Origin: Candidatus Falkowbacteria bacterium
GTDB taxonomy: Bacteria; Patescibacteriota; Patescibacteriia; CAIXNZ01
DNA length: 64,000 bases
Direction of reading: 5' to 3'
Assembly (NCBI GenBank): GCA_963774955.1
Contig: CAVZGV010000006.1
Coordinates: 159,224 to 223,223, forward strand
Positions 25 through 23,784 of this stretch are shown here, in pieces. A model generated the notes under the pieces. It ran no database searches and was not told the DNA's origin. It worked only from the letters and a program-made list of their open reading frames with translations. The position numbers and the translations under genes were made by a program. Every line of letters starts with the position of its first letter. The first letter of the stretch is position 1.

Positions 25-1140
25 TTAAAACCTTACCGAGCCGCGAACCCCGTAAGCGCCACCATGGACGCCCGGATTACTCCAACCCAGGAGGAACTGC
101 CTATCATGCCGACCCCAACCACCAAACGGGACGCCGCCCTTTCCTTTAAAATATGCCCCGGCATTCCAGCAACCATTGCCCTTGCCATCCCAGTCATCTA
201 TAACCTGATTATTTCTTTGCAGATATTCCATGAAATATATCAGCTGGGCTTCAGGAGTGGTAAACTGTTCGTTTGCGTACTGCTCCTCCGTCTGAATCTT
301 GGCCAGATATTCTTCAGGACTTTGTCCTGCCTCAAGCTGCTTTCTGCCTTCAATTTCCTGTCCCTTGCCTTCCGCAGGCAAGTCCGGCATGTCTTCAATC
401 ATTAAAATCTGCCAGCCACCAGTTTCGTTTATTAATTCCTGCTTGGTTTTGCCGCCATGATTATCGTCAAACTTTTTAACTCCATATACCAGATCACCTT
501 TAACGTCTGCGTCTTGGTATATATCATCAACATAAATAGGCCGTGGCTGGTCGTCTTCCATTTTCAATTCCAGCTTTGTCCCGTCTGTTGCCAGTAAATT
601 ACCCTCTCCATGCTTTTTCACTATTAATTCCCCTGCTTTTTCAGTAATTTCGCTTAATTTCATGCCAATCGGCACTAAAAGCAATTGGGTGAATCCCTGT
701 TCTCTTTTTTTATCCAGAATTTCAGCCTTGGCATTCATGCGTTTCAAGATCTCGTCATAACTCGGAATCGGCTGTTCATTGCCCAGAATATCTTTCATTC
801 CCCATTCCCCGTTTTTCAGCTTTTTCAAGATACCGACTTCTTTAAGCGTCTGAACTTGCTCTTCATATTGTTCCTTGAGATTTAATTCGCTCTCCAATTT
901 TTTACCGATAACCTCTGCTGTTTTCTTGTTTTTTAAATATGCCAGCAATTCCTGATATTTTTTCAGCGCTTTTGACAACTGATTGGCTGACTCATAGCCT
1001 TTGGCCTCGTCAATCATGGCCATGACTTTTTCTTTTTCATCAGGTGTCAGATCCATTTCCTTAACCCGACCCAAAACCTGCCTGGCTATTTCCAAGGCCG
1101 GATGTTCCTGCTTTTCTGATTGTTCCATTCCTTTTGACAT
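25..1140 (-). CDS. DGR variable (target) protein, paralog 1; C-type-lectin-like C-terminus; VR decayed
   Basis: About 70% identical to the ORFs at 19144..20283 and 21497..22642. Its last ~37 codons are homologous to the template repeat at 18727..18839. Conserved ...DDWDGxGxGCWNAGAYFKGxG motif precedes the variable tail, which ends SVRF. Confidence 0.75.
   Translation of the reverse strand: MSKGMEQSEKQEHPALEIARQVLGRVKEMDLTPDEKEKVMAMIDEAKGYESANQLSKALKKYQELLAYLKNKKTAEVIGKKLESELNLKEQYEEQVQTLKEVGILKKLKNGEWGMKDILGNEQPIPSYDEILKRMNAKAEILDKKREQGFTQLLLVPIGMKLSEITEKAGELIVKKHGEGNLLATDGTKLELKMEDDQPRPIYVDDIYQDADVKGDLVYGVKKFDDNHGGKTKQELINETGGWQILMIEDMPDLPAEGKGQEIEGRKQLEAGQSPEEYLAKIQTEEQYANEQFTTPEAQLIYFMEYLQRNNQVIDDWDGKGNGCWNAGAYFKGKGGVPFGGWGRHDRQFLLGWSNPGVHGGAYGVRGSVRF
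26..138 (-). repeat. DGR variable repeat VR1 (degenerate)
   Basis: 113-bp region aligns colinearly with the TR. It differs mostly at TR-adenine positions, but also shows a few non-adenine substitutions (e.g. gagccgcg vs gaggcccg) and an A-to-G change in the conserved 3' end (VRF vs VKF). Confidence 0.6.
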
Positions 1141-3668: not shown

Positions 3669-5041
3669 AATAATTGTTTTAATTCCTCCTGATAAATATT
3701 TAGTAATTTAGATTGTAAATTTTTAGGCACTGTAACCATCGGATAAATTTTGAAAAATTTTCGCCGCAGCCTTTTTTCTTGTTTAATGGCTTTAGCCAGA
3801 TATTTTTCTTTGAATAAATCAATCAGTGCCCCGCGCCAACCATTGCGGTAAGCCAGCAAGAATGATAATAATTGTTCCTGCTCCACCTGGGACGGCATTT
3901 CATAAGCCCGACGGTTTTTTAAATTAAAAATAGGATAAAGTTGCTCGTATTTTTTTTCAAACATATCTTGTTTCATGCCGATTTTTTTGGGATCGCCGCC
4001 GACTGCCGCTGAATATAAAAATGCTTTGGCGCACATCGGGCATTTATTACACCACCTATCTTCCCTGGTCATTTCATAGGCGCAGGACATAACATACTTC
4101 AATAAATAAGGATACCGGCTGTACAAAATTTTCATTTCAGCCAAATTATAGATAGGTCCGACTAAACTGGCAACCTGATAATTATCGGCGGTAAACTTTT
4201 TCAATTCCTGATTTAATTTCAGGGCATAACCGGAAGACTGATCAAATGAAGGGTAAGCCTTATATCCGTCCTGCAGCCAAAAATCATCCAGATTTTTTTC
4301 ATTGCCTAGAATCAAATACTTAGCCTGATGATAATAGGCAAATGGCAGAAACTCCAGGGCAAAAGCCAGCATGCCATTGGAATTATCAAATTCTTCAATC
4401 TTAACCGGCCAATTTTTATTATAAAAAATACTATCAGCATTATCTTCCAGATATTCTATTTTTTCTTTTTCATTTTTGACAAAGGCTCTGATAATTTTTC
4501 GTTTATGTTCGTTTTCAATACTGTATTCCCCTTCCATTTCATTGACATAAACAAGTTGATATTTAAGGCCCAGTTCTTTGATCAGGCCATAAGTCAGTAA
4601 ACTATCCTTGCCAAAAGACAAAGCCAAAATCGCTTTATTATGCAAAGCTTGCTTTTGGGGAATTATTTTTTCCGATTTTTTAACATCAGCAAAACTTATT
4701 TTGCGATCTTTAAACAGATTAACCAGCCTGAGAACTTTAAGTCTATTGGCAAACCCGACATGAGGCAAGTCACCTAAAACACCTTGATCAGCAATTCGAT
4801 GCAAAAAAGGCCTGCCCATCTCAAAACCTATTTTTTTATCTGTCGCCACCCCCAAAGGACCGGTACGCGAATAAATAAAATTTTCCGCCAAAATATTCTT
4901 TCGCTCAAATTGTTTCCATATTTTTTGCGGGTAAATCACCGAGTACTGAGCTTCTCCATTTACAGAAATTCTAAAACCATCATTACCAACCTGATAAGAA
5001 ATTTTCAATTCAAAATTATTTTTACCTGAAATATTTTTCAT
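3665..5041 (-). CDS. PP-loop ATP pyrophosphatase superfamily protein (QueC-like SxGxDS motif plus C-x2-C-x2-C zinc motif)
   Basis: 458 aa. Motif ALSFGKDS resembles the PP-loop SGGxDS. A later CAYEMTREDRWCNKCPMC matches the Cys cluster of QueC-type amidoligases. Its stop overlaps the start of the upstream ATP-grasp gene by 4 bp, consistent with an operon. Confidence 0.45.
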   Translation of the reverse strand: MKNISGKNNFELKISYQVGNDGFRISVNGEAQYSVIYPQKIWKQFERKNILAENFIYSRTGPLGVATDKKIGFEMGRPFLHRIADQGVLGDLPHVGFANRLKVLRLVNLFKDRKISFADVKKSEKIIPQKQALHNKAILALSFGKDSLLTYGLIKELGLKYQLVYVNEMEGEYSIENEHKRKIIRAFVKNEKEKIEYLEDNADSIFYNKNWPVKIEEFDNSNGMLAFALEFLPFAYYHQAKYLILGNEKNLDDFWLQDGYKAYPSFDQSSGYALKLNQELKKFTADNYQVASLVGPIYNLAEMKILYSRYPYLLKYVMSCAYEMTREDRWCNKCPMCAKAFLYSAAVGGDPKKIGMKQDMFEKKYEQLYPIFNLKNRRAYEMPSQVEQEQLLSFLLAYRNGWRGALIDLFKEKYLAKAIKQEKRLRRKFFKIYPMVTVPKNLQSKLLNIYQEELKQLL

Positions 5042-5196
5042 CCTTGAAATAGAAAAATTTTGTATTTTATATTTTATTTTTTATATTATAAGTATATGAC
5101 TAGTGTTTTTTATTGTCAATGATTTTTTGGCTTTTTTAAGCCTAAAAAGTTACTAACGGTCAAAAAAAGAGTTCCGCATTGCGGAACTCTAAAAAA

Positions 5197-6273
5197 TTAT
5201 TTTAAACCATATCTTTGCGCCGCCGAATTGATGATAGCCAAAAGCATTTCATCATATCTTTTTCCGGTCAGCGCCCACATCTTGGCCAGATGGCCATCCC
5301 AACACCAACCTGGATTGGGATTGACTTCCAAAAGCCGCGGTCTGCAATGCGCATCCAGCCGCCAGTCAAAGCGGGCATAGTCGCGGCAATTAAAAATGAG
5401 GAATAATCTGACGGAATTATTAATCATCACTCTGGTCATGTCTTCCGGCAAACTTGCCGGCAAGGTCTTGATGCCCTGCCAGTAAGGCGAATCAGGCTGC
5501 CATTTGGATTCATAACCGGCCAGGCGCGGCAAATCCGACGGCAAATCTGAATAATCGTCCTCAATGATGGGTAAGACTTCATATTTGTTTGGCGGATAGC
5601 CGACAATGCCCAGACTCAAATCTTTACCCGGTAAAAATTCCTGAATTAGAATTTTATTGTCTGACGGTAAAATGGCTCTCAATTCGTCATAGGCAGTAAG
5701 CAAACTCTCAGCATCGTAAGCCACGCTTTTTTGGGTGATACCCATACTGCCGTCGCCCAGATTAGGTTTGACCAAAACCGGAAAAGTGCTGACCGCAGCC
5801 GGAGTCTGAAAAGTTCTGGGCACTCGAATGCCGATCTGCGCCGCAATCTGCAAAACAGATTCTTTGTCATAACACTGATTCAGACAAAAGACATCCCCGC
5901 CCGTATAAGGCAGCCCCAAATTTTTCAGAACCTGAGGAATTTCATCTTCCCGCCTGGGGTCATTCATATAACCCTCATCGCACAAATTCAGCACCAAACT
6001 TACTTTAGAGGCTAAAGCTTCTAAGCCTTCAAACAAAGTCTGATGATTTTCAAAATAGATAAACTCATACTCGGTCAGTAAAGCCAAGGCTTTTTTGAGT
6101 TTAATCACAACCTCAAAATCCTCTGAATTAAACTTACCGTCCAGTTTAACCTGGTCAGGCAAATTCGGATCGCCCAAAATGACGGCGATCAGTTTTTTCG
6201 ATTTAAGGTGCATGCTATCTTCCTCCATTATTTGAATATGATAATCTAATGCAATCGTTACTAAATTTTGCAT
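5197..6273 (-). CDS. D-alanine--D-alanine ligase-like ATP-grasp enzyme
   Basis: 358 aa. Motifs LKNLGLPYTGGDVFCLNQCYDKESV, FPVLVKPNLGDGSMGIT and LIQEFLPGKDLSLGIVG match the Ddl family ATP-grasp core. GC is somewhat elevated relative to neighbours. Confidence 0.6.
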   Translation of the reverse strand: MQNLVTIALDYHIQIMEEDSMHLKSKKLIAVILGDPNLPDQVKLDGKFNSEDFEVVIKLKKALALLTEYEFIYFENHQTLFEGLEALASKVSLVLNLCDEGYMNDPRREDEIPQVLKNLGLPYTGGDVFCLNQCYDKESVLQIAAQIGIRVPRTFQTPAAVSTFPVLVKPNLGDGSMGITQKSVAYDAESLLTAYDELRAILPSDNKILIQEFLPGKDLSLGIVGYPPNKYEVLPIIEDDYSDLPSDLPRLAGYESKWQPDSPYWQGIKTLPASLPEDMTRVMINNSVRLFLIFNCRDYARFDWRLDAHCRPRLLEVNPNPGWCWDGHLAKMWALTGKRYDEMLLAIINSAAQRYGLK

Positions 6274-6412
6274 TAATATCTAAGTGTACGTTGTGAAACA
6301 AAAAAAGTCAAGGCTTTTTACCCGACTTCTATTTTCCCTTATTTTAAAAAGTCTTTAGTTATAAACTATCCCCCAATCACAAAAGACTAAACTGGCTGCC
6401 GCTAGCTATAAA

Positions 6413-7510
6413 CTAACGACCAATTATCTTATATACCAATTCTACATATCTTTTGGTCGCCTCCTTATCCAGAAGCTGACTGATGTTACGGCCCAGATTC
6501 TGCCTTTCCGGAAAATTCTGCATCAAAGTATCTATGACCTGCACAAATGTTTCCTTAGTTAATTTATCCTGAGCTAAAATTTTTACCGAGTTATATTTGA
6601 AAAAATACTGGGCATTGATTTCCTGATGTCCTGGAATTGGGATTAATAAAGCTGCTTTACCCAAAGCTGCCAATTCCGTGAGAGTAGAAAAGCCTGCCCG
6701 GCTAACAATCAAGTCTGCAACAGCCATGGCATCAAAAATTTCCTGATTTAAAAATTCATAGTCGCGATAACGCTCTTCAATCATTTTTAAAGTCTCACGA
6801 TTAAAATAATCATTAAACTGGCCACTGATCATTTTGCCTTTACCGGTTAAATGAATAATTTGGTATTTTGTTATCAACTGGGCCAGAGTATCAAAAACGA
6901 CCTGATTTATTTGCTGAGCCCCAGTCCCCCCGCCAGTAATTAATATTGTCGGCAAGTCTGCCTTAAGTTTAAAAAATGCCCAAGCCTTCTCTTTGTTGCC
7001 TAACAGAACCTCAGTTCTGATCGGATTACCGATAACAAAAGTTTTTTTGGGATCAAAATGGTTCCTTGATTCTTCAAAGGTCACGCTCACGGCGGTTGCC
7101 TTTTTAGCCATCAGCTTATTGGCCAAGCCAATTTCCAGATCCTGCTGGTGAACAATGCTGGGAATTTTCAGTATCCGAGCTGCATACATGACCGGCACGG
7201 CAATAAAACTACCGGCAGTCAAAACAATATCCGGCTTGAATTTTCGTATTATAAAATATGATTTGATCAAACCACAGAGAAAACCAAAAGGCGCCAAAAT
7301 ATTCCAACCAGAGAAATAACGTCTCAATTTCGCGCTGGTAATTGTTTTAAACGGAATATTATATTTGGCTAAAAATTCTTTTTCCGGTCCTTGTTTTGTC
7401 CCCAACCATAAAACCTCCAGATTAGCTTCTCTGGTTTTTAATTCCTCATAAATTGCTACCAGCGGTGAAACACTCCCCATTGTTCCTCCGCCGGAAAATA
7501 ATACCTTCAT
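6413..7510 (-). CDS. murG: UDP-N-acetylglucosamine--N-acetylmuramyl-(pentapeptide) pyrophosphoryl-undecaprenol N-acetylglucosamine transferase MurG
   Basis: N-terminal MKVLFSGGGTMGSVSPLVAIYEEL (the G-loop of GT28) and C-terminal GGTGAQQINQ ... IPGHQEINAQ motifs. Start taken at the internal Met at 7510; the ORF track extends it to 7588. Confidence 0.88.
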   Translation of the reverse strand: MKVLFSGGGTMGSVSPLVAIYEELKTREANLEVLWLGTKQGPEKEFLAKYNIPFKTITSAKLRRYFSGWNILAPFGFLCGLIKSYFIIRKFKPDIVLTAGSFIAVPVMYAARILKIPSIVHQQDLEIGLANKLMAKKATAVSVTFEESRNHFDPKKTFVIGNPIRTEVLLGNKEKAWAFFKLKADLPTILITGGGTGAQQINQVVFDTLAQLITKYQIIHLTGKGKMISGQFNDYFNRETLKMIEERYRDYEFLNQEIFDAMAVADLIVSRAGFSTLTELAALGKAALLIPIPGHQEINAQYFFKYNSVKILAQDKLTKETFVQVIDTLMQNFPERQNLGRNISQLLDKEATKRYVELVYKIIGR

Positions 7511-7677
7511 GTATTTGATTATAAATTCTATATGGATTAAAAATCCCAAATGCCTAGTGACAAGCTTCAAATAAAATACAAGTTCCAACCTCCAAAATCA
7601 AAATTTGTTTATTATTTTAGAATTTGTATTTTGATATTTATTTGCTTTTTGAAATTTGTAATTTGGTGCTTTTAACC

Positions 7678-8793
7678 TTATTCCCTCGTCTGCCTCGAAA
7701 CATTTACTACAATCCCGCAAGCTGCCAGCAATACCATCATTGAAGTCCCGCCGTAGCTGACAAATGGAAGCGGCACTCCGGTCAAAGGCAGAAGCCCGAC
7801 CATAGCGCTAATATTAACAAATGATTGGATTAAAATCCAGGCGACAATACCGATGACCAGATGTTTGCCGAAATTATCAGGCGCCTTCTGTGCGATTTTC
7901 AGGCCACGGGACATTAGAAATAAATAGGCAATAATTAATAATGATGAAAAAATAAAACCCAGTTCTTCGGCAATAATCGCAAAAATTGAATCTCCGGCAA
8001 CTTCAGGCAAATATTGAAATTTTTGACGCGACATACCAAAGCCTCGGCCCCAAAAGCCACCGGAACCTATGGCTAAAAAAGCTTGGTTAATATGATAGCC
8101 TATTCCCTGCGGATCAAGTTCCGGATGTAAAAATATGGTAAAACGAGCAACACGATAAGGCGCTACTTTTATTAACAAAAATAAACCCAAGATCGAACCG
8201 ATGCCTACGCCAATCATATGTAAAAGATTAGCTCCACCGATAAAATATACTGTCAGGGCAATCATGGCAATAATTGTCATGGTCCCTAAATCAGGCTGTA
8301 AAACTAATAAAAAGATAATCACGCCCAAAATACATAAAAACGGCACCAGACCTTCACTGAAATTACCTGCCTTCTTTTGGCCGTGAGTGTCCAGCCAGGA
8401 CGCTAAATAAATTAAAAAAGTTAATTTTACCAATTCAGAAGGCTGGAAAGAAACGCCAAAAATATTAATCCAACTTTGCGCTGTACCGTAACCGGCGCCA
8501 ATTTTCGGTATAAAAACTAAGACTAACAAACCGATGGAACCCACCAGAGCAAAAAATGAGAATCGTTTTAAAATTTTATAATCCAGCAATGAAAAAAAGA
8601 TAAACGCCAATAAGCCCGGAATCAAACCCCAAAATATCTGATGTTTCAATAAGTAATAACTATCGTGATATTTTTCAAAAGACAATGAAACGCTGGCTGA
8701 AGACAGCATTACCAGCCCAAAAACGATAATCATAAATAACCCTATTATGAATCCATAATCCGGCTGATGCCAATTTTTAGTAAAAAAACGCAT
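7678..8793 (-). CDS. ftsW: SEDS-family peptidoglycan glycosyltransferase FtsW/RodA
   Basis: 10-TM profile. Conserved GGFWGRGFGMSRQKFQYLPEVAGDSIFAIIAEELGF and LPLTGVPLPFVSYGGTS motifs. Confidence 0.85.
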   Translation of the reverse strand: MRFFTKNWHQPDYGFIIGLFMIIVFGLVMLSSASVSLSFEKYHDSYYLLKHQIFWGLIPGLLAFIFFSLLDYKILKRFSFFALVGSIGLLVLVFIPKIGAGYGTAQSWINIFGVSFQPSELVKLTFLIYLASWLDTHGQKKAGNFSEGLVPFLCILGVIIFLLVLQPDLGTMTIIAMIALTVYFIGGANLLHMIGVGIGSILGLFLLIKVAPYRVARFTIFLHPELDPQGIGYHINQAFLAIGSGGFWGRGFGMSRQKFQYLPEVAGDSIFAIIAEELGFIFSSLLIIAYLFLMSRGLKIAQKAPDNFGKHLVIGIVAWILIQSFVNISAMVGLLPLTGVPLPFVSYGGTSMMVLLAACGIVVNVSRQTRE

Positions 8794-8794
8794 A

Positions 8795-10189
8795 TTATTT
8801 CACTAAATTCTTTACAGCATAATTAAACTGATCACCCCGATCGAATTCATTAATAAATAAACCAAAACTTGCTGCTCCGGGAGATAGAATAAACGTATCA
8901 CCAGGCTTTAATATATACTTCGCCTGTTTAAATGCTTCCTTCATGGAATCAACAAAAACCAAATTCTCATTATAATTTATCTTACGTAATTCTTTGACTA
9001 ATTTATCGGTTGCAGTTCCTTCAAACAAAATCAAAGACCTGACCTTTGCCTTGATGGTTTTCGCAAGTTCCCGAAACTCCAATTTCTTATCAGTGCCGCC
9101 GGCTAGAAGCACTACTTTTGGCGGAAAAGAATTTAAAGCGGCAATAACCGCATCCGGCGTGGTTGCCGTGGTATCATTATAATATTTGATACCGCCAAAT
9201 TCTCTGATCAACTGCAGCCTACCTTCAACGCCCTTAAACTCGGAGACTGCCTTTTTAATAATTCTAGTTGGTACGCCAAAGACTTTAGCCAAAGCAACTG
9301 CCCCCAAAACATTGGATAAGTTATGTGTTCCAACCAATAAAACTGATTTTACGGGTATAATCTTTTCTGCTTTGATTTTATTTTTAAATATCAGCCAGCC
9401 CTTATCTAAATAAGCGCCACTTTCTTTTTTACCTAATTTTGCCAGGCTATACCAGAATACATGTGAATGAGTCTTTGAACCCATAGCCCTGGTATAATCA
9501 TTATCTCTGTTTAGAATCAAATAATTATTAGGTTTTTGGAACTTAAATATTAAGGCTTTGGCCCGAGCATAATCAGCCATACTTTTATAAGTATTCAAAT
9601 GATCACGCATGACATTGGTAACCAAAGCATATTGAGGACTAATTTCGCGGTTTTCCAGACCTTCAACCTGCCAGGATGATAATTCTAAAACGACAGGAGT
9701 TTGTTGCCTAATTTTGGTTAAAGAATCAAGCGGCGAAACCCTGATATTACCGCCGAGAATAGTCTCCTTCTTATATTGTTTTATAATATGATAAATCAAA
9801 CTGGTGGTTGTGCTTTTACCTTTTGTGCCCGTGATACCGACTATTTTATCTGAAGAGCACAAGCTAAAAAACAGGCTCATATCGGTTTCAATCGGCACTT
9901 TATGTTTTTGAGCGGCCTGCAAATATTTATTCACACCATGCACCCCGGGGTTTTTAATCACCATATCTGCGTTAACAAAATCAGCGAGTTTGTGCTGACC
10001 TAAAACATAATTAATTTTAAAGCCCTTAAGCTGTTTAATTGAACTTGCCAATTGAAGCGCTGACTTCATATCAGTGACAGTCACCACTGCTCCCTTTTGA
10101 GCCAAAAATTTAGTCACACCCAAACCGCCTCCGTGCAAGCCGAGGCCCATAACTGTAACCTTTTTACCTTTAAAATCTATGTTCGCCAT
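8795..10189 (-). CDS. murD: UDP-N-acetylmuramoylalanine--D-glutamate ligase MurD
   Basis: N-terminal Rossmann VMGLGLHGGG and Mur-ligase P-loop ITGTKGKSTTTSLIYHI. Mur ligase C-terminal domain follows. Sits immediately upstream of ftsW. Confidence 0.88.
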   Translation of the reverse strand: MANIDFKGKKVTVMGLGLHGGGLGVTKFLAQKGAVVTVTDMKSALQLASSIKQLKGFKINYVLGQHKLADFVNADMVIKNPGVHGVNKYLQAAQKHKVPIETDMSLFFSLCSSDKIVGITGTKGKSTTTSLIYHIIKQYKKETILGGNIRVSPLDSLTKIRQQTPVVLELSSWQVEGLENREISPQYALVTNVMRDHLNTYKSMADYARAKALIFKFQKPNNYLILNRDNDYTRAMGSKTHSHVFWYSLAKLGKKESGAYLDKGWLIFKNKIKAEKIIPVKSVLLVGTHNLSNVLGAVALAKVFGVPTRIIKKAVSEFKGVEGRLQLIREFGGIKYYNDTTATTPDAVIAALNSFPPKVVLLAGGTDKKLEFRELAKTIKAKVRSLILFEGTATDKLVKELRKINYNENLVFVDSMKEAFKQAKYILKPGDTFILSPGAASFGLFINEFDRGDQFNYAVKNLVK

Positions 10190-14799: not shown

Positions 14800-15524
14800 A
14801 CGAATGAAAATAGTAATTAGTTATTAATAATTGGTAATTTATTTAAATCTCTAAATGATACAACGATAATTGGGTATTTTTTCGATTTTCTTTTTTATAT
14901 TTTATTTTTTAAAATCAATCTAAGAATTATTTTTCCAACTAAGCCTTAGATTGATCCTGAAGCACACGCTTCAGGATGTGAGATGTATTACCCGCTTAGT
15001 AATGAATACCAAACTAAGTGATTAAATTTTGAAACTCGGGGACAACTATACCCACCCCTACATTTCGTAACTTTCCCTCCGCCGTCCACTTGGTTAATAT
15101 TATTCGGGTAACGCTCTGTTTTTATCCCTCATCATAGATTTTTTCTACGATGAAAATTGTTGAAGGTCGAAGGAGATCCAGGCGGAAAGCGGCAGAGCCA
15201 TTTAGTTAATATTCGTGTGAATATTAGACTAAATGAACTCTGCGCGCCTCCCAACCCGGAATCTCCCTCGACCTTTTTTTAATGTACTACACGCCCTCCA
15301 TTTATCACTATTCTACTTTCATCATATACCCGCCCAAAATATTTGTCAAGTATTTTTCTACAAGTTTAAATTAGAATAGTGTATTTTACTTAATTTTAGC
15401 TTAATTATTATATATATTTTGTCAACATATTTTACTATAAAAAACAAAGTTATCCACAACGTACTAGAACTCGCAACGCTCGTTCAGTACGTTGCAGGCA
15501 GCAACAAAAAAGCGCAAACGACCT

Positions 15525-16610
15525 TTGTCTTTTGTCATTTCGGGTAAATGGTACCCAAACTGGTTGGTGAAAAGACAAAATTTCTGTTAAGGTTAGATTA
15601 AAATTGATACTTAATATTAAACTGGTTCAATATTATGAAAAAAAACTTGTCCAGATTGCTCCTCTAATAATGTAATTTTTTATGGCCAAAATGATTGCGG
15701 ACGGCAAAGATTCAAGTGCGGGAAGTGCAATCGACTGTTTGTTTTCCGCAATGCAAAGAATAAATTGAACCGCCAACTTAAATGGTTTAAATTATGGATA
15801 GCCGAAGGATATTCAGTCAGGCAAATTTCGGGAATTAGCCACCACAGCAGGAAAACAATTAAGGGAATAATCAGTTATTGGCTCGCAAAATTACCGAGCC
15901 CTTTAAACGTACAAACCGGAATAAAATATCTGCTTTTTGATGGTACATATTTCCACCGCATGAATTGCTTAATGCTGGCAATGAATAATGCCAATGGCCA
16001 AATCATCACAAATAGGTATTTAAGGCGTGAAAATTACTTTGCCGCCCTTGAGCTGTTCAAGGAGCTGTCAGATAAAGGAATCAAGCCTACAGCCATTACA
16101 ATTGACGGTAATACTAGCGTAATTAGAGCCTTAAAGGACGCATGGCCGAATATCGTAATACAGCGCTGTATCGTTCATATCCAGAGGCAGGGATTATCTT
16201 GGTTAAGAATGCGTCCTAAACTGGAGCCATCGATACAATTACGCAAGATATTACTGGCGGTAACAAACATTAACAATTATCCGGAAAAACATAAATTTAT
16301 TTCAGATTTTCATAAGTGGGAAAGAAAATTCGGCAAAGCGGTTTCAAGACTCGACTGTAACCACAAAGTCTTTAGTGATTTGCAAAGAACTAGAAGCTTA
16401 GTAATTCATGCCTTGCCCGACATGTTCCATTATTTAGATAATCCGAATATCGCCAAATCAACGAATAAACTTGAAGGATATTTTTCTCGTTTAAAAAGAT
16501 TGTATCGCCAGCATTCAGGATTAAGCAAAGATAACAGAAACAATTACATTAGCTGGTATATTCATTTCAAAAATCATTAATTCACCAACCAGTTTGGACC
16601 CCTTATACCC
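15525..16610 (+). mobile_element. IS1595-family-like insertion sequence, copy 1 (ends partly eroded)
   Basis: 1086 bp identical (100%) to 20301..21386. Terminal inverted repeats ggtacccaaactggttggtgaa / ttcaccaaccagtttggacccc. Encodes a zinc-ribbon DDE transposase. Confidence 0.8.
15765..16580 (+). CDS. DDE transposase, IS1595/ISXO2-like (C-terminal TNKLEGYFSRLKR ... NNYISWYIHFKN signature)
   Basis: 271-aa ORF. The same frame upstream (no ATG) encodes a zinc ribbon, CPDC-x15-CGRQRFKCGKC. An ATG at 15635 sits in another frame immediately 5' of an A8 run (15638..15645), so the full protein probably needs a +1 shift or transcriptional slippage. Confidence 0.75.
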   Translation: MNRQLKWFKLWIAEGYSVRQISGISHHSRKTIKGIISYWLAKLPSPLNVQTGIKYLLFDGTYFHRMNCLMLAMNNANGQIITNRYLRRENYFAALELFKELSDKGIKPTAITIDGNTSVIRALKDAWPNIVIQRCIVHIQRQGLSWLRMRPKLEPSIQLRKILLAVTNINNYPEKHKFISDFHKWERKFGKAVSRLDCNHKVFSDLQRTRSLVIHALPDMFHYLDNPNIAKSTNKLEGYFSRLKRLYRQHSGLSKDNRNNYISWYIHFKNH

Positions 16611-16775
16611 ATTTCGACCGGAGTGGAGAAATCCCTCAATAATCTAAGGGATGCCTCCATTTCAGTCGGTATGACAAATGGCATTTACGCTTCCCTATTT
16701 CCAATCCCTAATTCCTCAATCTTGACTTTACCTCATTTTTCTGCTAAACTTCCCTATTACCGATAAGGAGGCAAC

Positions 16776-17390
16776 ATGGATTTAAGGCCCATTCTTAAAC
16801 CCTATCTAAAAGGCGAACTAGTCACCATTTGGACAATTTGCCCGGTAACATCCTGGGAACATTTTCAAAAAGTCGGCCTGATCAAGGCTGATGGCCGCCG
16901 CGCCATGAAGAGTTACCGCGAAGCCTATCATTGGCTGATCGAGCAAATGGTAAAAAAAATACCAGGTCATAAACCTGGTCAATTCCCCACCTGGGCCTGG
17001 TATTATCCCCGCCCCGACCTACGCCACATAGCGCATTTAGCCACAGGGACCAAAGGGATATTGCTAACCTGCAAAGTCCCCGGCCAAAGAATGCTGCTGT
17101 CTGACTTTGGCGCCTGGCACCATGTGCTTAACCAATGGTATTTGCCGCTGACCAAAGAAGAAGATGATGCAGCCGACGAGGAAGAACGAGGCTGGTACAA
17201 ACTGCCAAATATCAGCCAAAAATACTGGCAGTTGCGCCTGGAAAAAAACATGCCCAGCTGGCAGCGTATCTTCGATCTGCAGGCTCTCAATAAATCAAAA
17301 CTGCTTGGTCCGGTTGAACAGATCCAAGCGACTGTTTCTTACATCAGACTGGACGAGGTGGTAAAAGTTACACCTTTTACTGCCCGCTAA
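16776..17390 (+). CDS. Hypothetical protein (GC-elevated, no recognised domain)
   Basis: 204 aa, about 50% GC against an AT-rich flank. Followed by an intrinsic terminator. Confidence 0.5.
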   Translation: MDLRPILKPYLKGELVTIWTICPVTSWEHFQKVGLIKADGRRAMKSYREAYHWLIEQMVKKIPGHKPGQFPTWAWYYPRPDLRHIAHLATGTKGILLTCKVPGQRMLLSDFGAWHHVLNQWYLPLTKEEDDAADEEERGWYKLPNISQKYWQLRLEKNMPSWQRIFDLQALNKSKLLGPVEQIQATVSYIRLDEVVKVTPFTAR

Positions 17391-17413
17391 GAACCCTCCG
17401 GGGTTCTTTTTTA
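17391..17413. terminator. Rho-independent terminator (gaaccctccggggttc plus T6), likely bidirectional
   Basis: Perfect 6-bp GC stem with a T-run. Lies between two convergent genes. Confidence 0.7.
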
Positions 17414-17447
17414 TATCAAAAAAGAGGACGATGCCCTCTTTATAATG

Positions 17448-18404
17448 CTAGTTTAAAAGCTCTATAGCCTGCCAGTTAAATTTGAATAACCCTTTCCGAC
17501 CAAATGGCTTAATAATCCCATAGTAGCTTGGGATATTTCTAAAATTCAATTTCTGAAAAATACGCCGCATATTCATTCCAGATAATTTCCTGTCATAAGA
17601 ATAAATAATACTCCCTAAAAAATGCAATCCTTGCTCTGCCTTGATAATTATATCATTTTTGAGGTTTATATTCAGGTTAAGACGAGTATTTAAAAAATTT
17701 ACAGCCAAATTCCTAAGTTCTCCTGCCCTCTCTTTACTCCCAGCCAAGATTATAAAATCGTCTCCGTATCTTAAATAAGCCATTGGCTTTAATATATTTT
17801 TAACATAGCGGTCAAATTCATTCAAATAAATATTGGCGAAAATCTGGCTGGTCAAATTGCCGATGGGCATTCCCCCGTTATTGCCCAAATCATAACTTAT
17901 AATCACCTTGGCAATTAAATTAAAACTGAACTTATCTTTAATTCTTAATTTAATAATATCTAATAAAATTTCCTGGCCCACAGAATCAAAGAACTTCTTA
18001 ATGTCAGAACGCCAGACATAACTATCAGGATATTGGCGTAAAAATGATTGTGTTCTTTTAATGGCCTTATGCAATCCTTTGCCTTTTCGGCATGACCAAG
18101 CATCATAAATAAAAGTTTTATCGTAAATCTCCACCAGATAGTCATAAATCAGCCGATGAACAATTTTATCGCGTAACGGCGCGACCGAAATCGTCCGTTT
18201 CTTATTATCAGTCACCTCAAAATATCTGTAATTGCCCGGTTGATAATTGTCAGTTATCAGCTCTTCATGAAGCTTAAACAATTCCGGCTCCAGATTATAT
18301 TTAAACTCATCAAATTCATAAGTCCGCTTTTTGCCTTTTTGGTATTCGCCAAAACAGCGCCATAAATTTGCTACACTGATGTCCATGGAACCATATCCGG
18401 TCAT
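17448..18404 (-). CDS. Diversity-generating retroelement reverse transcriptase
   Basis: RT motifs 1-7 are present (RTISVAPLRDKIVHRLIY, DIKKFFDSV, YLRYGDDFIIL, GLHFLGSII). Motif 4 reads PIGNLTSQIFANIYL, the [I/L/V]GxxxSQ form typical of DGR RTs rather than the QGxxxSP of group II intron or retron RTs. Adjacent Avd, TR and VRs support the call. Confidence 0.85.
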   Translation of the reverse strand: MTGYGSMDISVANLWRCFGEYQKGKKRTYEFDEFKYNLEPELFKLHEELITDNYQPGNYRYFEVTDNKKRTISVAPLRDKIVHRLIYDYLVEIYDKTFIYDAWSCRKGKGLHKAIKRTQSFLRQYPDSYVWRSDIKKFFDSVGQEILLDIIKLRIKDKFSFNLIAKVIISYDLGNNGGMPIGNLTSQIFANIYLNEFDRYVKNILKPMAYLRYGDDFIILAGSKERAGELRNLAVNFLNTRLNLNINLKNDIIIKAEQGLHFLGSIIYSYDRKLSGMNMRRIFQKLNFRNIPSYYGIIKPFGRKGLFKFNWQAIELLN

Positions 18405-18729
18405 AAATTTAATTTACGAGGTTTATAAGCAGATTATAGACCTTGACAGCCGGCTGACTAAAAGGTGGCGCTATTCTCTAGGCGTGAGTCTGGAAAACAG
18501 CATTTTATCATGTCTGGAACTCTTGATCATGGCCAAGAACGCGCCCAAGCCGCTCAAAGCGCCCTATCTGTACAAGGCAGACGCGCAATTGGAAATAATC
18601 CGCCTCAAACTGCGATTGCTTCTGGAGCTGAAACTGGCGAATGAAACTAAACTTTTCCAATTGCAGAGCCAATTGCAGGAAATAGGGCGCCAAGTCGGCG
18701 GCTGGCTGAAATCAGCGCAGAATAAATAA
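18379..18729 (+). CDS. avd: DGR accessory variability determinant (Avd; four-helix-bundle, bAvd-like)
   Basis: About 117 aa. Its C-terminal half (YKADAQLEIIRLKLRLLLELK ... EIGRQVGGWLKS) resembles my recollection of Bordetella phage bAvd (YAADAGLAMLRFWLRFL ... EVGRILGSWIARV). Divergent from the RT, with start codons overlapping at CCATGG. Confidence 0.65.
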   Translation: MSMEPYPVINLIYEVYKQIIDLDSRLTKRWRYSLGVSLENSILSCLELLIMAKNAPKPLKAPYLYKADAQLEIIRLKLRLLLELKLANETKLFQLQSQLQEIGRQVGGWLKSAQNK

Positions 18730-18842
18730 AACTTTACCGAGGCCCGAACCGAATTATTGTCATTATGATTGTCTGGATTATTCCAATTCAAGTTGAACTG
18801 ATGATTATTCCGATTCCAATTGCCAAACGGCACAGCGCCCTT
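18727..18842 (-). repeat. DGR template repeat (TR)
   Basis: 113-bp block colinear with the 3' ends of the three target genes. In the sense (minus) orientation it is Asn/AAY-codon rich (NWNRNNHQFNLNWNNPDNHNDNN). All 41 mismatches to VR2/VR3 fall on TR adenines. Confidence 0.85.
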
Positions 18843-18963
18843 GATTGATTTAGCTTGTCCATATACCTTAGATCGTCGCAACGATCCTCGGTCCATTGGC
18901 TTGGATTTTTCATCCACAGTAGCCCGGGAGGGCGAAGGTGGATAAGCTAAACTCAAACGTAAA

Positions 18964-18993
18964 GTTATATTTATTATTTTGCGCAAACGACAA
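18964..18993 (-). promoter_or_regulatory. Candidate sigma70-like promoter for the TR (and RT) transcript (TTGTCG-18-TATAAC on the minus strand), overlapped by a TTTGCGCAAA palindrome
   Basis: Hexamers read on the minus strand. A 10-bp perfect palindrome at 18978..18987 lies in the spacer. A second copy is at 19028..19037. Confidence 0.3.
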
Positions 18994-19143
18994 TGCAGTC
19001 TTAAAAACTGATCATTGCGATTTTTGATTTGCGCAAATTTACGGTAGCTGAATCTAAGTTCAGCATGTATTCACCGTATTACTGATTTAAAAATACAAAG
19101 ACAAAATATAAAAGCCTCAAAACCAAAACCCAAAGTCCAAATC

Positions 19144-20283
19144 TTAAAACTTTACCGAGGCCCGAACCGAACCACCGTCACTATGAGAGCCTGGATAACG
19201 CCAATCCAAGCGGAACTGACGATTAAACCGATTCCAACGGCCAAACGGCACAGCGCCTTTCCCTTTAAAATATGCCCCAGCATTCCAGCAGCCTTTGCCC
19301 TGTCCGTCCCAATCATCTATCATTTGATCATGATGTTGCAGCTGCTGTATTAAATATATCAGCTGCGCCTCGGGCGTGGTAAATTGTTCATCAGCGTACT
19401 GCTCCTCAGTCTGAATCTTGGCCAGATATTGTTCAGGGCTTTGGCCTGCGTCAAACTGTTGCCTGCCTTCTATGTCTTTTCCCTTGCCTTTTTCCGGTAA
19501 ATCCGGCAGGTCTTCAATAAACATCACTTGCCAACCTACGCTCTCCGAGCTTCGGTTGGCAAGCCAGCCGGATAAAAGTTCTGACTTAGTCTGACCTCCA
19601 TGGTTATCTTTATCAAACTTTTTAACTCCATAAACCAGATTACCGTTGATATCAGCATCTTTGTATTCATCATTTACAAAAACCGGCTGATTCTCATCTA
19701 GTTCCAACTTTGTGCCGTCTGTAGCCAGCAATTTGCCCTCTTTATGCTTTTTGATTATTAACTTCCCAGCTTTCTCTGCAATTTCACTTAGCTTCATGCC
19801 AATCGGCACCAAAAGCAACTGGGTAAAGCCCTGCTCTCTTTTTTTATCCAGCATTTCGGCTTTGGCTTCCATTCGATCCTTTATCTCCTGATAGCTCGGA
19901 ATCAGCTGTTCTTGCCCGAGAATATCAATCATGCCCCATTGGCCGTTTTTAAACTCCTGCAAGATGCCAACTTGTTTGAGTGTTTCCACTTGTTGGTCAT
20001 ATTGTTCCTGCAAATTAAATTCCTGTTCAAGATTTTCGCGTTTTAACTTACGTCCGTGAATTGTTTCCATTTTTGCCTTTACCTGCTGCAGTAAATTTAA
20101 AGCAGCCGACAAATTGCCGGCTTTTTCTGCATCGACGGCTTTGGTTACCAGTTCATTAATTTCCTGGCGCTGCTCATCAGTCATTTCCATTTCCTTAGCC
20201 TGCAACAAACTGCGTCTGGCCATTTCCATGACCGGCGCTTCGGGAGTTTGTAGTTTTTCCATTCCTTTTTTCATAAATTTCAT
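19144..20283 (-). CDS. DGR variable (target) protein, paralog 2; C-type-lectin-like C-terminal VR
   Basis: 379 aa. C-terminus ...GCWNAGAYFKGKGAVPFGRWNRFNRQFRLDWRYPGSHSDGGSVRASVKF. VR differs from TR only at TR adenines. Confidence 0.85.
   Translation of the reverse strand: MKFMKKGMEKLQTPEAPVMEMARRSLLQAKEMEMTDEQRQEINELVTKAVDAEKAGNLSAALNLLQQVKAKMETIHGRKLKRENLEQEFNLQEQYDQQVETLKQVGILQEFKNGQWGMIDILGQEQLIPSYQEIKDRMEAKAEMLDKKREQGFTQLLLVPIGMKLSEIAEKAGKLIIKKHKEGKLLATDGTKLELDENQPVFVNDEYKDADINGNLVYGVKKFDKDNHGGQTKSELLSGWLANRSSESVGWQVMFIEDLPDLPEKGKGKDIEGRQQFDAGQSPEQYLAKIQTEEQYADEQFTTPEAQLIYLIQQLQHHDQMIDDWDGQGKGCWNAGAYFKGKGAVPFGRWNRFNRQFRLDWRYPGSHSDGGSVRASVKF
19145..19257 (-). repeat. DGR variable repeat VR2
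   Basis: 19 of 19 substitutions versus TR sit at TR adenine positions. The 3' 27 bp (ggttcgggcctcggtaaagtttta, IMH-like) is identical to TR. Confidence 0.85.
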
Positions 20284-20284
20284 T

Positions 20285-21415
20285 TGGGCGAAAACGCCCG
20301 TTGTCTTTTGTCATTTCGGGTAAATGGTACCCAAACTGGTTGGTGAAAAGACAAAATTTCTGTTAAGGTTAGATTAAAATTGATACTTAATATTAAACTG
20401 GTTCAATATTATGAAAAAAAACTTGTCCAGATTGCTCCTCTAATAATGTAATTTTTTATGGCCAAAATGATTGCGGACGGCAAAGATTCAAGTGCGGGAA
20501 GTGCAATCGACTGTTTGTTTTCCGCAATGCAAAGAATAAATTGAACCGCCAACTTAAATGGTTTAAATTATGGATAGCCGAAGGATATTCAGTCAGGCAA
20601 ATTTCGGGAATTAGCCACCACAGCAGGAAAACAATTAAGGGAATAATCAGTTATTGGCTCGCAAAATTACCGAGCCCTTTAAACGTACAAACCGGAATAA
20701 AATATCTGCTTTTTGATGGTACATATTTCCACCGCATGAATTGCTTAATGCTGGCAATGAATAATGCCAATGGCCAAATCATCACAAATAGGTATTTAAG
20801 GCGTGAAAATTACTTTGCCGCCCTTGAGCTGTTCAAGGAGCTGTCAGATAAAGGAATCAAGCCTACAGCCATTACAATTGACGGTAATACTAGCGTAATT
20901 AGAGCCTTAAAGGACGCATGGCCGAATATCGTAATACAGCGCTGTATCGTTCATATCCAGAGGCAGGGATTATCTTGGTTAAGAATGCGTCCTAAACTGG
21001 AGCCATCGATACAATTACGCAAGATATTACTGGCGGTAACAAACATTAACAATTATCCGGAAAAACATAAATTTATTTCAGATTTTCATAAGTGGGAAAG
21101 AAAATTCGGCAAAGCGGTTTCAAGACTCGACTGTAACCACAAAGTCTTTAGTGATTTGCAAAGAACTAGAAGCTTAGTAATTCATGCCTTGCCCGACATG
21201 TTCCATTATTTAGATAATCCGAATATCGCCAAATCAACGAATAAACTTGAAGGATATTTTTCTCGTTTAAAAAGATTGTATCGCCAGCATTCAGGATTAA
21301 GCAAAGATAACAGAAACAATTACATTAGCTGGTATATTCATTTCAAAAATCATTAATTCACCAACCAGTTTGGACCCCTTATACCCGGTATGACAACGGG
21401 CGTTTTCGCCCTCGC
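20285..21415 (+). mobile_element. IS1595-family-like insertion sequence, copy 2 (complete, with 20-bp outer inverted repeats gggcgaaaacgcccgttgtc / gacaacgggcgttttcgccc)
   Basis: Core identical to copy 1. Starts 2 bp upstream of the target-2 start codon. Confidence 0.8.
20541..21356 (+). CDS. DDE transposase, IS1595/ISXO2-like (identical to 15765..16580)
   Basis: 100% nucleotide identity to copy 1, with the same upstream zinc-ribbon frame and A8 run (20414..20421). Confidence 0.75.
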   Translation: MNRQLKWFKLWIAEGYSVRQISGISHHSRKTIKGIISYWLAKLPSPLNVQTGIKYLLFDGTYFHRMNCLMLAMNNANGQIITNRYLRRENYFAALELFKELSDKGIKPTAITIDGNTSVIRALKDAWPNIVIQRCIVHIQRQGLSWLRMRPKLEPSIQLRKILLAVTNINNYPEKHKFISDFHKWERKFGKAVSRLDCNHKVFSDLQRTRSLVIHALPDMFHYLDNPNIAKSTNKLEGYFSRLKRLYRQHSGLSKDNRNNYISWYIHFKNH

Positions 21416-21496
21416 AAGTATTCACCGTATTATTAATTTTTAAAAAATCAAATCCGAAAACAATAAAACAATATCTCAAGTCCCAAACTCCAAATC

Positions 21497-22642
21497 TTAA
21501 AACTTTACCGAGGCCCGAACCGAAGCAAGGTCATAAGGAGCGTCTGGAGAACGCCAAGCCAAGTAGAACTGATGAAGATCCCGAACCCAAAGGCCAAACG
21601 GCACAGCGCCTTGCCCTTTAAAATATGCCCCAGCATTCCAGCAGCCTTTGCCCTGTCCGTCCCAATCATCTATCATTTGATCATGATGTTGCAGCTGCTG
21701 TATTAAATATATCAGCTGCGCCTCGGGCGTGGTAAATTGTTCATCAGCGTACTGCTCCTCAGTCTGAATCTTGGCCAGATATTGTTCAGGGCTTTGGCCT
21801 GCGTCAAACTGTTGCCTGCCTTCTATGTCTTTTCCCTTGCCTTTTTCCGGTAAATCCGGCAGGTCTTCAATAAACATGACTTGCCAACCTACGCTCTCCG
21901 AGCTTCGGTTGGCAAGCCAGCCGGATAAAAGTTCTGACTTAGTCTGACCTCCATGGTTATCTTTATCAAACTTTTTAACTCCATACACCAGATCACCATT
22001 TATATCAGCGTCTTTATATATTTCATCCACAAAAACAGGTTGTGGCTTGCCATTTTCATCTAATTTGATTTCCAGCTTGGCTCCGTCTGTTCCCAGCAAT
22101 TTGCCCTCTTTATGCTTTTTGATTATTAACTTCCCAGCTTTCTCTGCAATTTCACTTAGCTTCATGCCAATCGGCACCAAAAGCAACTGGGTAAAGCCCT
22201 GCTCTCTTTTTTTATCCAGCATTTCGGCCTTGGCTTCCATTCGTTTTTTAATCTCTTCATAGCTGGGTATTGGCTGTTCATTGCCTAAAATATCTACAAT
22301 TCCCCAGTTACCGTTTTTGAATTCCTGCAGAATACCTACTTCTTTTAAAGTCTGAAATTGTTCTTCGTATTGTTCCTTTAAATTTAATTCTTGTTCCAAA
22401 TTTTCTTTGGCTACATTCGCTTTTTGCAACTTTTCCATTTTTTTCTTGACCTGATTTAAAAGTTTTATAGCTCCGGCCAAATCTTTGGCATTTTCCTTGG
22501 CAACAGCCTGATCAATCAGTTCCATTATTTCCGCTTTTTGTTCAGCAGTCATTGCCATTTCCTTAACCGAACCCAAAACCTGCCTGGCCATGGCCAGAGC
22601 CGATGCTTCGGAATTTTTTACTTGTTCCATTTTTCTCGACAT
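21497..22642 (-). CDS. DGR variable (target) protein, paralog 3; C-type-lectin-like C-terminal VR
   Basis: 381 aa. C-terminus ...GCWNAGAYFKGQGAVPFGLWVRDLHQFYLAWRSPDAPYDLASVRASVKF. Lies directly downstream of mraY. Confidence 0.85.
   Translation of the reverse strand: MSRKMEQVKNSEASALAMARQVLGSVKEMAMTAEQKAEIMELIDQAVAKENAKDLAGAIKLLNQVKKKMEKLQKANVAKENLEQELNLKEQYEEQFQTLKEVGILQEFKNGNWGIVDILGNEQPIPSYEEIKKRMEAKAEMLDKKREQGFTQLLLVPIGMKLSEIAEKAGKLIIKKHKEGKLLGTDGAKLEIKLDENGKPQPVFVDEIYKDADINGDLVYGVKKFDKDNHGGQTKSELLSGWLANRSSESVGWQVMFIEDLPDLPEKGKGKDIEGRQQFDAGQSPEQYLAKIQTEEQYADEQFTTPEAQLIYLIQQLQHHDQMIDDWDGQGKGCWNAGAYFKGQGAVPFGLWVRDLHQFYLAWRSPDAPYDLASVRASVKF
21498..21610 (-). repeat. DGR variable repeat VR3
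   Basis: 22 of 22 substitutions versus TR sit at TR adenine positions. Confidence 0.85.
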
Positions 22643-22725
22643 ACGGTTAATCCCTTCTTACTCTTCTTACCCGTCTTCCCCCTTTTTACCCTTTCCAAAC
22701 AGACTTCAAACTTCGAACTTCAATC

Positions 22726-23784
22726 TTAGTAAATTTTGTCCATCAGCACTATAATCACCCCGATCACCGCCATGACCGTGGCAATCAGCCAAAAGCGCAT
22801 GACGATTTTGCACTCAGTCCAACCTTGGGCTTCCAGATGATGATGAATCGGCGCGGAGATAAATACTTTACGCTTAAAATATTTTTTGGAGAACATTTGT
22901 GTGGCGGAGGATAAGGCTTCAATCACGAACAAAAATCCGATTACCGGCAAAATTAAAACTGAGTTGGTCAGCATGGCCACTATGCCTAAAGTAACTCCCA
23001 ACCCCATGGAACCGGTATCTCCCATCATAAATCTGGCCGGATTAATATTGAACCACAAAAAGGAAATCAAGGCACCGACAATCACCCCGCAAAAAGTCGC
23101 TAAATCATATCTACCTTGGGTAAAAGCGATTATGGCAAAGGCAGCAAAAGCCGAGGCCAAAAGTCCGCCGGCCAAACCGTCCAGGCCGTCGGTAATATTT
23201 ACTGCGTTGGAAGTGGCCACAATGATAAAAGTAAAAATCGGAATATACCACCAACCGATTTGAAAATCACCAATAAACGGTACCCGAATTAAATCCCAAT
23301 CCAATTTAAAATAAAACCAGAAAGCGCTAACCAAAGCAATGACCGTATAAATTAATAACTTGTAACGCATTTGCAAACCACCGCCTTTGGGGCCAATACC
23401 CTTGATATTTAAAACATCATCAAACATACCGACCAGCGCTGAAGCGACTAAAGCACCCAGAGGTAAAAGCGTCTGAGACCTGGTCAAAAAGTTTAACTTA
23501 TCAAAAATCTCCCAGGTAGTCCATTGCGCCAAAGCGTAAAAAATTAAAGCCAGAGCCAAAACAGTAACCCAAATTAAAATGCCTCCCATGGTCGGCGTAC
23601 CCGCCTTATGCGCATGTAATTGGGACATGACCGGAGCTCCGCCATCCGCAGTTCTGATTTTCTTGCCCCAATTATACTTGTACATAAAAAAAGTCAAGGC
23701 CGGAGTCCATAAAATTGCTACCACGAAAGCCAAAGCGCTAAGAAATAAAATTTTTACGATAATAAATGCATCCATATATTTCAA
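22726..23784 (-). CDS. mraY: Phospho-N-acetylmuramoyl-pentapeptide transferase MraY
   Basis: 10-TM protein with NAVNITDGLDGLAGG and MMGDTGSMGLG motifs. Confidence 0.9.
   Translation of the reverse strand: MKYMDAFIIVKILFLSALAFVVAILWTPALTFFMYKYNWGKKIRTADGGAPVMSQLHAHKAGTPTMGGILIWVTVLALALIFYALAQWTTWEIFDKLNFLTRSQTLLPLGALVASALVGMFDDVLNIKGIGPKGGGLQMRYKLLIYTVIALVSAFWFYFKLDWDLIRVPFIGDFQIGWWYIPIFTFIIVATSNAVNITDGLDGLAGGLLASAFAAFAIIAFTQGRYDLATFCGVIVGALISFLWFNINPARFMMGDTGSMGLGVTLGIVAMLTNSVLILPVIGFLFVIEALSSATQMFSKKYFKRKVFISAPIHHHLEAQGWTECKIVMRFWLIATVMAVIGVIIVLMDKIY

Follow-up and report, generated by a model that had tools for sequence, protein, structure and literature searches.

A B3-type diversity-generating retroelement in a Candidatus Falkowbacteria genome, with a conserved structured RNA 5' of its template repeat

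Introduction

Diversity-generating retroelements (DGRs) are reportedly abundant in the Candidate Phyla Radiation (CPR), and to our knowledge the biochemistry and structure of DGR RNA all derive from a single phage element. That element, the DGR of Bordetella phage BPP-1 (mtd-avd-TR-brt; PDB 8ub7), combines an adenine-specific transfer of sequence from a template repeat (TR) to a variable repeat (VR) with an accessory variability determinant (Avd) and a variable protein of the C-type lectin (CLec) fold. In its RNA the TR is preceded by the 3' end of avd and followed by a 140-nt spacer, which begins with an Avd-binding hairpin and a primer strand complementary to the TR 3' end. After 2 nt comes one half of a 'stop' duplex, completed by a strand immediately 5' of the TR, and then a small hairpin, unpaired adenosines together with a 'thumb ring' of single-stranded RNA, and a long hairpin that binds the reverse transcriptase (RT), bRT (Handa et al., bioRxiv 10.1101/2023.10.23.563531). 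A different arrangement is the B3 architecture TR-(avd)-RT, in which avd separates TR and RT and is encoded on the other strand; it is reported for 90% of CPR DGRs and hardly ever outside the CPR (Wu et al. 2018, NAR 46:11, PMC5758913). Because avd is inverted behind the TR, CPR elements cannot share the RNA layout of the phage. Here a DGR of Candidatus Falkowbacteria is compared with these systems. It lies in a 64,000-nt stretch of contig CAVZGV010000006.1 (assembly GCA_963774955.1, positions 159,224 to 223,223), referred to as the window, and all coordinates below are window positions unless another locus is named. The element had been noted in an earlier reading of the nucleotide sequence and its open reading frames (ORFs), made without database searches (the sequence-only reading).

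Results

Adenine-restricted differences between template and variable repeats

The element is, with near certainty, a DGR. The ORF list and a repeat finder reveal three co-oriented copies of a ~113-nt repeat on the minus strand. One copy, the TR, sits in an intergenic stretch, and the 3' ends of the other two, VR1 and VR2, coincide with the stop codons of ORFs of 379 and 381 aa (Table 1). By explicit counting, TR adenines account for 41 of 41 mismatches between TR and VRs, and the 79 non-adenine positions are unchanged in both VRs. The hypergeometric probability of this restriction, given 34 adenines among the 113 nt, is 1.1e-12 for VR1 and 3.7e-15 for VR2, and the chance of all 41 substitutions falling at adenines is below 1e-26 for both combined. 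Between VR1 and VR2 there are 20 differences, every one of them at a TR adenine. Read in frame, the TR encodes GAVPFGNWNRNNHQFNLNWNNPDNHNDNNSVRASVKF, including 12 AAY codons, and the 27 adenines that change in one or both VRs all occupy codon position 1 or 2. The 3'-terminal 27 nt (TTCGGTTCGGGCCTCGGTAAAGTTTTA) are the same in TR, VR1 and VR2 and occur nowhere else in the window (0 expected by chance). This invariant block is GC-rich over its first 17 nt, and shows no difference between TR and VRs of the kind that distinguishes the initiation of mutagenic homing site (IMH) from IMH*.

The sequence-only reading had described a 113-bp TR, VRs with 19 and 22 differences that all fall at sense-strand adenines of the TR, an identical IMH-like terminal 27 bp and a run of AAY Asn codons. 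The computational alignment that it proposed reproduces all of these to the base, and its coordinates for the two target genes ending in VRs (19144..20283 and 21497..22642) are also correct. A 140-aa ORF running across the TR (18564-18986) has no homolog or domain and was rejected as spurious.

Reverse transcriptase and Avd

The RT matches Pfam RVT_1 (58 bits). In a phmmer search of all PDB sequences the top match among solved structures is the Bordetella phage bRT (8ub7_A, E=2.4e-32, residues 13-286 aligned), and retron-type and group II RTs rank after it with 1.6e-19 or weaker, a gap of 13 orders of magnitude. The motifs SDIKKFFDS (residues 133-141), IGNLTSQ (181-187) and YGDD (213-216) align with bRT D138, I181/G182/Q187 and D215/D216, respectively, which are template-site and dNTP-site residues described by Handa et al. 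(bioRxiv 10.1101/2023.10.23.563531). Over longer segments, GMPIGNLTSQIFANIY aligns with bRT GIPIGSLTSQLFANVY, RYGDD with RYMDD, and SDIKKFFDS with SDFSKFFPS. Placement of the RT in the DGR clade is based on motif 4 ([I/L]GxxxSQ) and the PDB similarity ranking. Both agree with the DGR-type RT of the sequence-only reading, which had named grouping with group II intron or retron RTs as the outcome that would speak against it; the PDB ranking points the other way.

Avd is recognized by Pfam PF22296 (bAvd, 51.1 bits, cut-off 40), and scores 65.8 bits with the NCBIfam equivalog model DivGenRetAVD, below the cut-off of 80. Its only meaningful PDB matches are 4dwl (Bbp7, E=0.009) and 8ub7_B (Avd, E=0.06). 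An Avd homolog beside the RT, as noted earlier, is thus borne out by the Pfam match, with the addition that avd is on the strand opposite to RT, TR and targets.

B3 architecture and related loci

The order on the minus strand is target 2 with VR2, an insertion sequence (IS), target 1 with VR1, a ~240-nt structured RNA, TR, inverted avd and RT. The stop codon of avd abuts the TR 3' end, and the starts of avd and RT overlap head-to-head by 20 nt (18385-18404), an overlap that recurs in most related loci. Thus, the promoter of each gene must lie within the coding sequence of the other. The best promoter-like site upstream of the RT is a candidate by consensus match, which is no proof of function. 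Neither start has an obvious Shine-Dalgarno sequence.

With avd between TR and RT on the opposite strand, the element is a DGR of the known, CPR-typical B3 architecture. The inverted avd was considered as a novelty and rejected as such, since it is already part of B3 as described by Wu et al. 2018 (PMC5758913). The CPR/DPANN B3 DGRs of that study have the same gene order and orientation, inverted avd included, and likewise a short RT (~320 aa) and targets without Pfam domains carrying a C-terminal VR; nothing categorical differs. Particular to the copy here are two cognate targets split by an IS, a non-cognate third paralog, and a target family of ~70 members. Compared with BPP-1, avd is on the other strand and overlaps the RT start, there is no IMH/IMH* mismatch, the element is chromosomal rather than phage-borne, and the target has a helical-bundle N-terminus rather than being a tail fibre. 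The GC-rich, invariant 3' IMH-like block is found in both.

The closest relatives are found in Parcubacteria, Peregrinibacteria and other CPR metagenome-assembled genomes (MAGs). The closest RTs (72-82% identity) are from loci L001 (a Lac Pavin Parcubacteria MAG), L003, L004 and L086, which have the same layout as here. A set of 80 metagenome loci retrieved with Avd likewise has the inverted, overlapping avd/RT pair in every case that includes the RT end. Of these loci, 37 carry a VR on the strand of the TR, ~400-550 nt upstream of it, and the mismatches number 611 at TR adenines and 79 at other positions. These 79 probably fall mainly at the edge of the compared segment, past the TR/VR homology.

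A conserved structured RNA 5' of the template repeat

The 300 nt from the stop codon of target 1 to the TR are conserved across the family with abundant compensatory change. A structure was named from an alignment of 64 loci, and its pairs were counted against controls in which the partners were slid by 1-3 columns. In the named structure 88.7% of cells are paired (38-48% slid), 427 cells are changed on both sides (80-110 slid), and the covariation score is 0.608 (0.11-0.14 slid); none of 500 shuffles reached the observed values. The minimum free energy (MFE) fold of the single sequence 19085-18720 contains the same helices, at -108.9 kcal/mol against -81.6 +/- 5.6 for shuffles (z=-4.9). Covariation establishes the RNA structure; the functions suggested for its parts draw on analogy with the Bordetella RNA.

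Pairing in P2 reaches 94%, and single positions show up to six pair types; RNAalifold recovers this helix de novo, with compensatory change in 11 of 12 pairs. P1 joins the 3' end of the TR to a strand just 5' of P2. Its 17 pairs are 75.9% paired (37-52% in controls) with a covariation score of 0.31 (0.07-0.13), and ACUUUAC/GUAAAGU here is replaced by CCCUCAC/GUGAGGG, CCCUUAG/CUAAGGG and CCCAUAG/CUAUGGG in other loci. The 4-nt linker between the P1 5' strand and P2 carries a near-invariant G, the TR base just 5' of P1 (G at 18738) is also nearly invariant, and the three adenines within P1 are never mutated in the VRs. The hairpin P0a (GGUGAAUAG...hairpin...GGCUACC) was found in ~45 loci. It lies ~65 nt after VR1, and also follows VRs without a TR behind them, as in L004 and, as a shortened copy, after VR2. 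P0a may therefore instead belong to the VR flank, like the hairpin that follows the VR in Bordetella; GC-rich inverted repeats in this place are not universal among DGRs (Wu et al. 2018, PMC5758913).

On the other side of the TR, RNAalifold finds 0 conserved pairs in the 125 nt downstream in 47 related loci, and the variation there, antisense to avd, follows avd codon positions. A spacer-like structure antisense to avd was rejected on this basis. A search of Rfam 15 with 15000-23000 gave no family for the RNA, only a sub-threshold chance match to an S15 leader. The stem-loop survey of Handa et al. (bioRxiv 10.1101/2023.10.23.563531), which includes CPR DGRs, folded single sequences reaching no further than 40 nt before and 100 nt after the TR. 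No account of a 5' RNA scaffold turned up in literature searches, although one may exist.

Each element of the Bordetella RNA has a candidate counterpart here: the template:primer duplex with the 'stop' duplex directly after it, the small hairpin, the A-rich single strand and a long hairpin with a UNCG-type tetraloop. The near-invariant G at 18738 resembles the initiating G117 of Bordetella. However, the structured RNA is 3' of the TR in Bordetella and 5' of it here, with the same internal order, as in a circular permutation, and the putative primer helix is ~17 bp rather than ~10. By this analogy, the RNA here probably works like the Bordetella RNA without sharing its layout.

An apparent deletion is seen in L001. 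At 576-640 of that locus the TR-adjacent target gene has lost most of its VR, and approximately the first 22 VR nt are fused to the scaffold hairpin, apparently by deletion. An intact cognate VR is found in a gene 5 kb away, downstream of the RT, and a second four-helix-bundle gene (23S_rRNA_IVP/Avd-like) follows the RT.

Target proteins and their paralogs

The 365 bp directly upstream of the VR are 99.7% identical in targets 1 and 2 (one mismatch). The C-terminal domain of the targets is predicted to adopt the formylglycine-generating enzyme (FGE)/CLec fold of known DGR variable proteins; the sequence-only reading had proposed a check for a CLec fold. Foldseek against PDB gave no significant matches. 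The targets have no Pfam domains, including no match to Pfam FGE-sulfatase, and the family has ~70 known members. Identity to the FGE-type CLec variable proteins TvpA of Treponema denticola and TaqVP of Thermus aquaticus is below 10%, and the Foldseek comparison with them is not significant. No signal peptide or membrane segment is visible by eye.

A third member of the family (25-1140) has a VR-like 3' end with 36 mismatches to the TR. Because 13 of these affect non-adenine positions, the gene is not among the present targets of this TR, and is either orphaned or served by another TR beyond the window. P0003, a fourth paralog, is on the same contig outside the window, and its VR-like C-terminus does not match the TR. 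These two paralogs may point to another DGR in the genome or to targets that have lost theirs. A degenerate IMH pattern, scanned across a collection of genome contigs, had its sole match in the related Lac Pavin Parcubacteria contig. The target paralogs are found amid peptidoglycan-synthesis genes (1245-10189 and 22726-23784), encoding a Ddl-like ATP-grasp fusion, MurD and an MraY-like glycosyltransferase 4.

Insertion sequences and neighbouring genes

The interval assigned to the DGR by the sequence-only reading does contain its parts, but it also holds an unrelated IS (20286-21411). The left inverted repeat of this IS (20281-20305 region) starts 2 bp ahead of the ATG annotated for target gene 1, so the native promoter and ribosome-binding region have been displaced; the real start could be an internal Met, M4 or M8. 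The right end cuts a P0a-like element downstream of VR2, of which approximately the first 20 nt (AAUACGGUGAAUACUUGC) remain (21412-21497). This remnant suggests that each target copy once carried a P0a hairpin.

A second, direct IS256/IS1249-like copy is found at 15510-16691, and shares a 1090-bp core with the first with 2 mismatches (15522-16611 vs 20298-21387). The terminal inverted repeats of the two copies are clearly different, and copy 1 has an extra ~56-bp insert bearing a hairpin near its right end. No target-site duplications are seen at either copy. Together they bracket the DUF3841 gene, RT, avd, TR, scaffold and target 1, and IS-mediated deletion or movement of the DGR core is conceivable. 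A composite transposon around DUF3841-RT-avd-TR-target 1 is speculation, as there are no target-site duplications and the termini differ.

The DUF3841 gene (16776-17390, plus strand) and the RT gene are convergent, and terminator-like hairpins stand back to back at 17389-17441. DUF3841 was rejected as a DGR accessory because it is not conserved beside related RTs. The wider context is chromosomal, with genes for an MraY-like glycosyltransferase, MurD, a Ddl-like ligase, IscS and NifU nearby and no phage genes seen.

Table 1. Coordinates of the DGR, its structured RNA and associated features in the window.
Feature	Position	Strand	Details
Template repeat (TR)	18727-18839	-	113 nt, 34 adenines, 12 AAY codons; repeat finding, alignment and counting
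VR1	19145-19257	-	19 A-to-N differences from TR; 3' end of target gene 1
VR2	21498-21610	-	22 A-to-N differences from TR; 3' end of target gene 2
DGR reverse transcriptase gene	17448-18404	-	318 aa; public gene call begins at Met7, 18386
avd	18385-18729	+	114 aa from ATG; ORF opens at TTG 18331
Conserved structured non-coding RNA	18843-19078	-	~240 nt between target 1 and TR; alignment of 64 loci
P0a hairpin	19078-19040	-	5' element of the structured RNA
P0b long hairpin	19037-18978	-	after P0a
P1 5' strand	18975-18959	-	pairs with 18737-18721
P2 5' strand	18954-18944	-	near-invariant bulged G; pairs with 18856-18847
P3 hairpin	18942-18913	-	small, variable
Conserved A-rich single strand UGAAAAAUCCAAGCCAAUGG	18912-18893	-	between P3 and P4
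P4 hairpin	18887-18870	-	conserved UGCG (UNCG-type) tetraloop
P2 3' strand	18856-18847	-	closes the scaffold 8 nt upstream of TR
P1 3' strand (GUAAAGUUUUAUUUAUU)	18737-18721	-	last 11 nt of TR and 6 nt beyond; MFE fold and covariation
Target gene 1	19144-20283	-	379 aa; N-terminal helical bundle and predicted C-terminal FGE/CLec-fold domain
Target gene 2	21497-22642	-	381 aa; paralog of target 1, 78% aa identity
Third target-family paralog	25-1140	-	VR-like 3' end, 36 mismatches to TR, 13 at non-adenine positions
IS256/IS1249-like IS	20286-21411	+	transposase at 20541-21356 between perfect 20-bp terminal inverted repeats; unrelated to the DGR
Best promoter-like site, TAGTCA-16-TATAAT	18433-18460	-	~30 nt upstream of RT start, within avd coding sequence; 10/12 consensus matches
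Terminator-like hairpin and T-run	17421-17441	-	directly after RT stop codon; consensus scan only

Discussion

A B3 DGR with the RNA mechanism set out here is very likely the best explanation of the locus as a whole. In the proposed mechanism, an RNA spanning scaffold and TR would be bound by an RT-Avd complex, and the TR 3' end (GUAAAGU..., 18737-18721) would pair with the strand ~220 nt upstream (18975-18959) to form P1. Synthesis of cDNA would be primed in cis at the end of P1, with the near-invariant G at 18738 as first template base, and would run 5'-ward through the TR with misincorporation opposite adenines, stopping before P2. The cDNA would then replace VR1 or VR2, with homology provided by the identical 27-nt 3' block and an A-free 18-nt 5' block, and up to 16 codons could be recoded on the ligand-binding face of the predicted CLec-fold domain. 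The circularly permuted order of the RNA would explain how an avd inverted directly behind the TR is tolerated. That the RNA works in this way, with scaffold, cis-priming and stop helix, is somewhat favored by the analogy with Bordetella. Extension to the whole B3 class, with an RT-Avd-recruiting and cis-priming scaffold that is a circular permutation of the Bordetella DGR RNA, its spacer equivalent 5' of the TR, tied to the TR 3' end by a P1 of ~17 bp and closed near the TR by a P2 of 10-12 bp, and the sequence 3' of the TR merely antisense avd, is more tentative, at a little under an even chance.

The alternatives differ in how much of this they dispute. Ordinary divergence or gene conversion of three repeats beside a group II intron- or retron-type RT would leave no DGR at all. 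The profile searches with the RT give this some footing: Pfam RVT_1 is matched, but the RT passes no NCBIfam model, with a group II intron RT/maturase on top (TIGR04416, 135.7 bits) and the retron model at 53 bits (cut-off 235), and public annotations label relatives of the RT as 'retron-type' or 'group II intron' RTs. However, the group II score is far below its cut-off of 300, Rfam finds no group II intron or retron RNA in 15000-23000, and the 318-aa RT has no maturase or endonuclease extension and has bRT as its closest solved relative. Together with the restriction of every substitution to adenines, this effectively refutes the reading, and its probability is vanishingly small. An objection confined to the RNA is that the layout may be canonical, with a functional spacer-like RNA 3' of the TR, antisense to avd, and the upstream structure being the 3' untranslated region (UTR) or terminator of the target gene, or a DNA-level target-recognition element of the kind that follows the Bordetella VR. 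For many DGRs with an Avd, CPR examples included, Handa et al. (bioRxiv 10.1101/2023.10.23.563531) predict stem-loops right after the TR, and the occurrence of P0a after VRs without a TR means that at least P0a could be a VR-flank element. Against this are the codon-driven variation and lack of conserved pairs downstream of the TR, and the strong covariation of P1, P2 and P4, with the pairing of P1 to the TR 3' end unexplained by a UTR or terminator role. The canonical layout is accordingly improbable.

It could also be that the element is a DGR with intact parts in which diversification has ceased, for example since the arrival of the IS, so that the VR differences record past activity. Two observations weigh against an element in working order and could mean that it is compromised: the IS is 2 bp upstream of the start of target 1 and its other end cuts the conserved hairpin after VR2, and the third paralog has already drifted from the TR at 13 non-adenine positions. 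Population variants of the targets are also not on record, as all five window proteins queried are singleton clusters. However, there are zero non-adenine mismatches over 2 x 113 nt, and neither the RT nor the avd ORF is interrupted, with every catalytic motif in place. The VR flanks are 99.7% identical while the VRs differ at 20 positions, each a TR adenine, which indicates that homing came after the last duplication or conversion of the targets and was recent on the scale of neutral change. A fossil DGR is therefore unlikely, and recent activity of the DGR is likely. The sequence-only reading of a complete DGR agrees with the presence of TR, both VRs, RT, Avd and predicted lectin-fold targets, and the element is genuine and probably functional.

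The locus adds one well-resolved DGR from the CPR, where DGRs are already known to be abundant, with two freshly diversified paralogous targets that belong to an unannotated, predicted lectin-fold family amid cell-wall synthesis genes. The covariation-supported scaffold 5' of the TR provides the DGR type that prevails in uncultured bacteria with a concrete model. Its predictions are a priming nucleotide near 18958-18959, 18738 as the first template base and a stop helix at 18847-18856, and it would define the minimal RNA for reconstituting or engineering compact RT-Avd systems.

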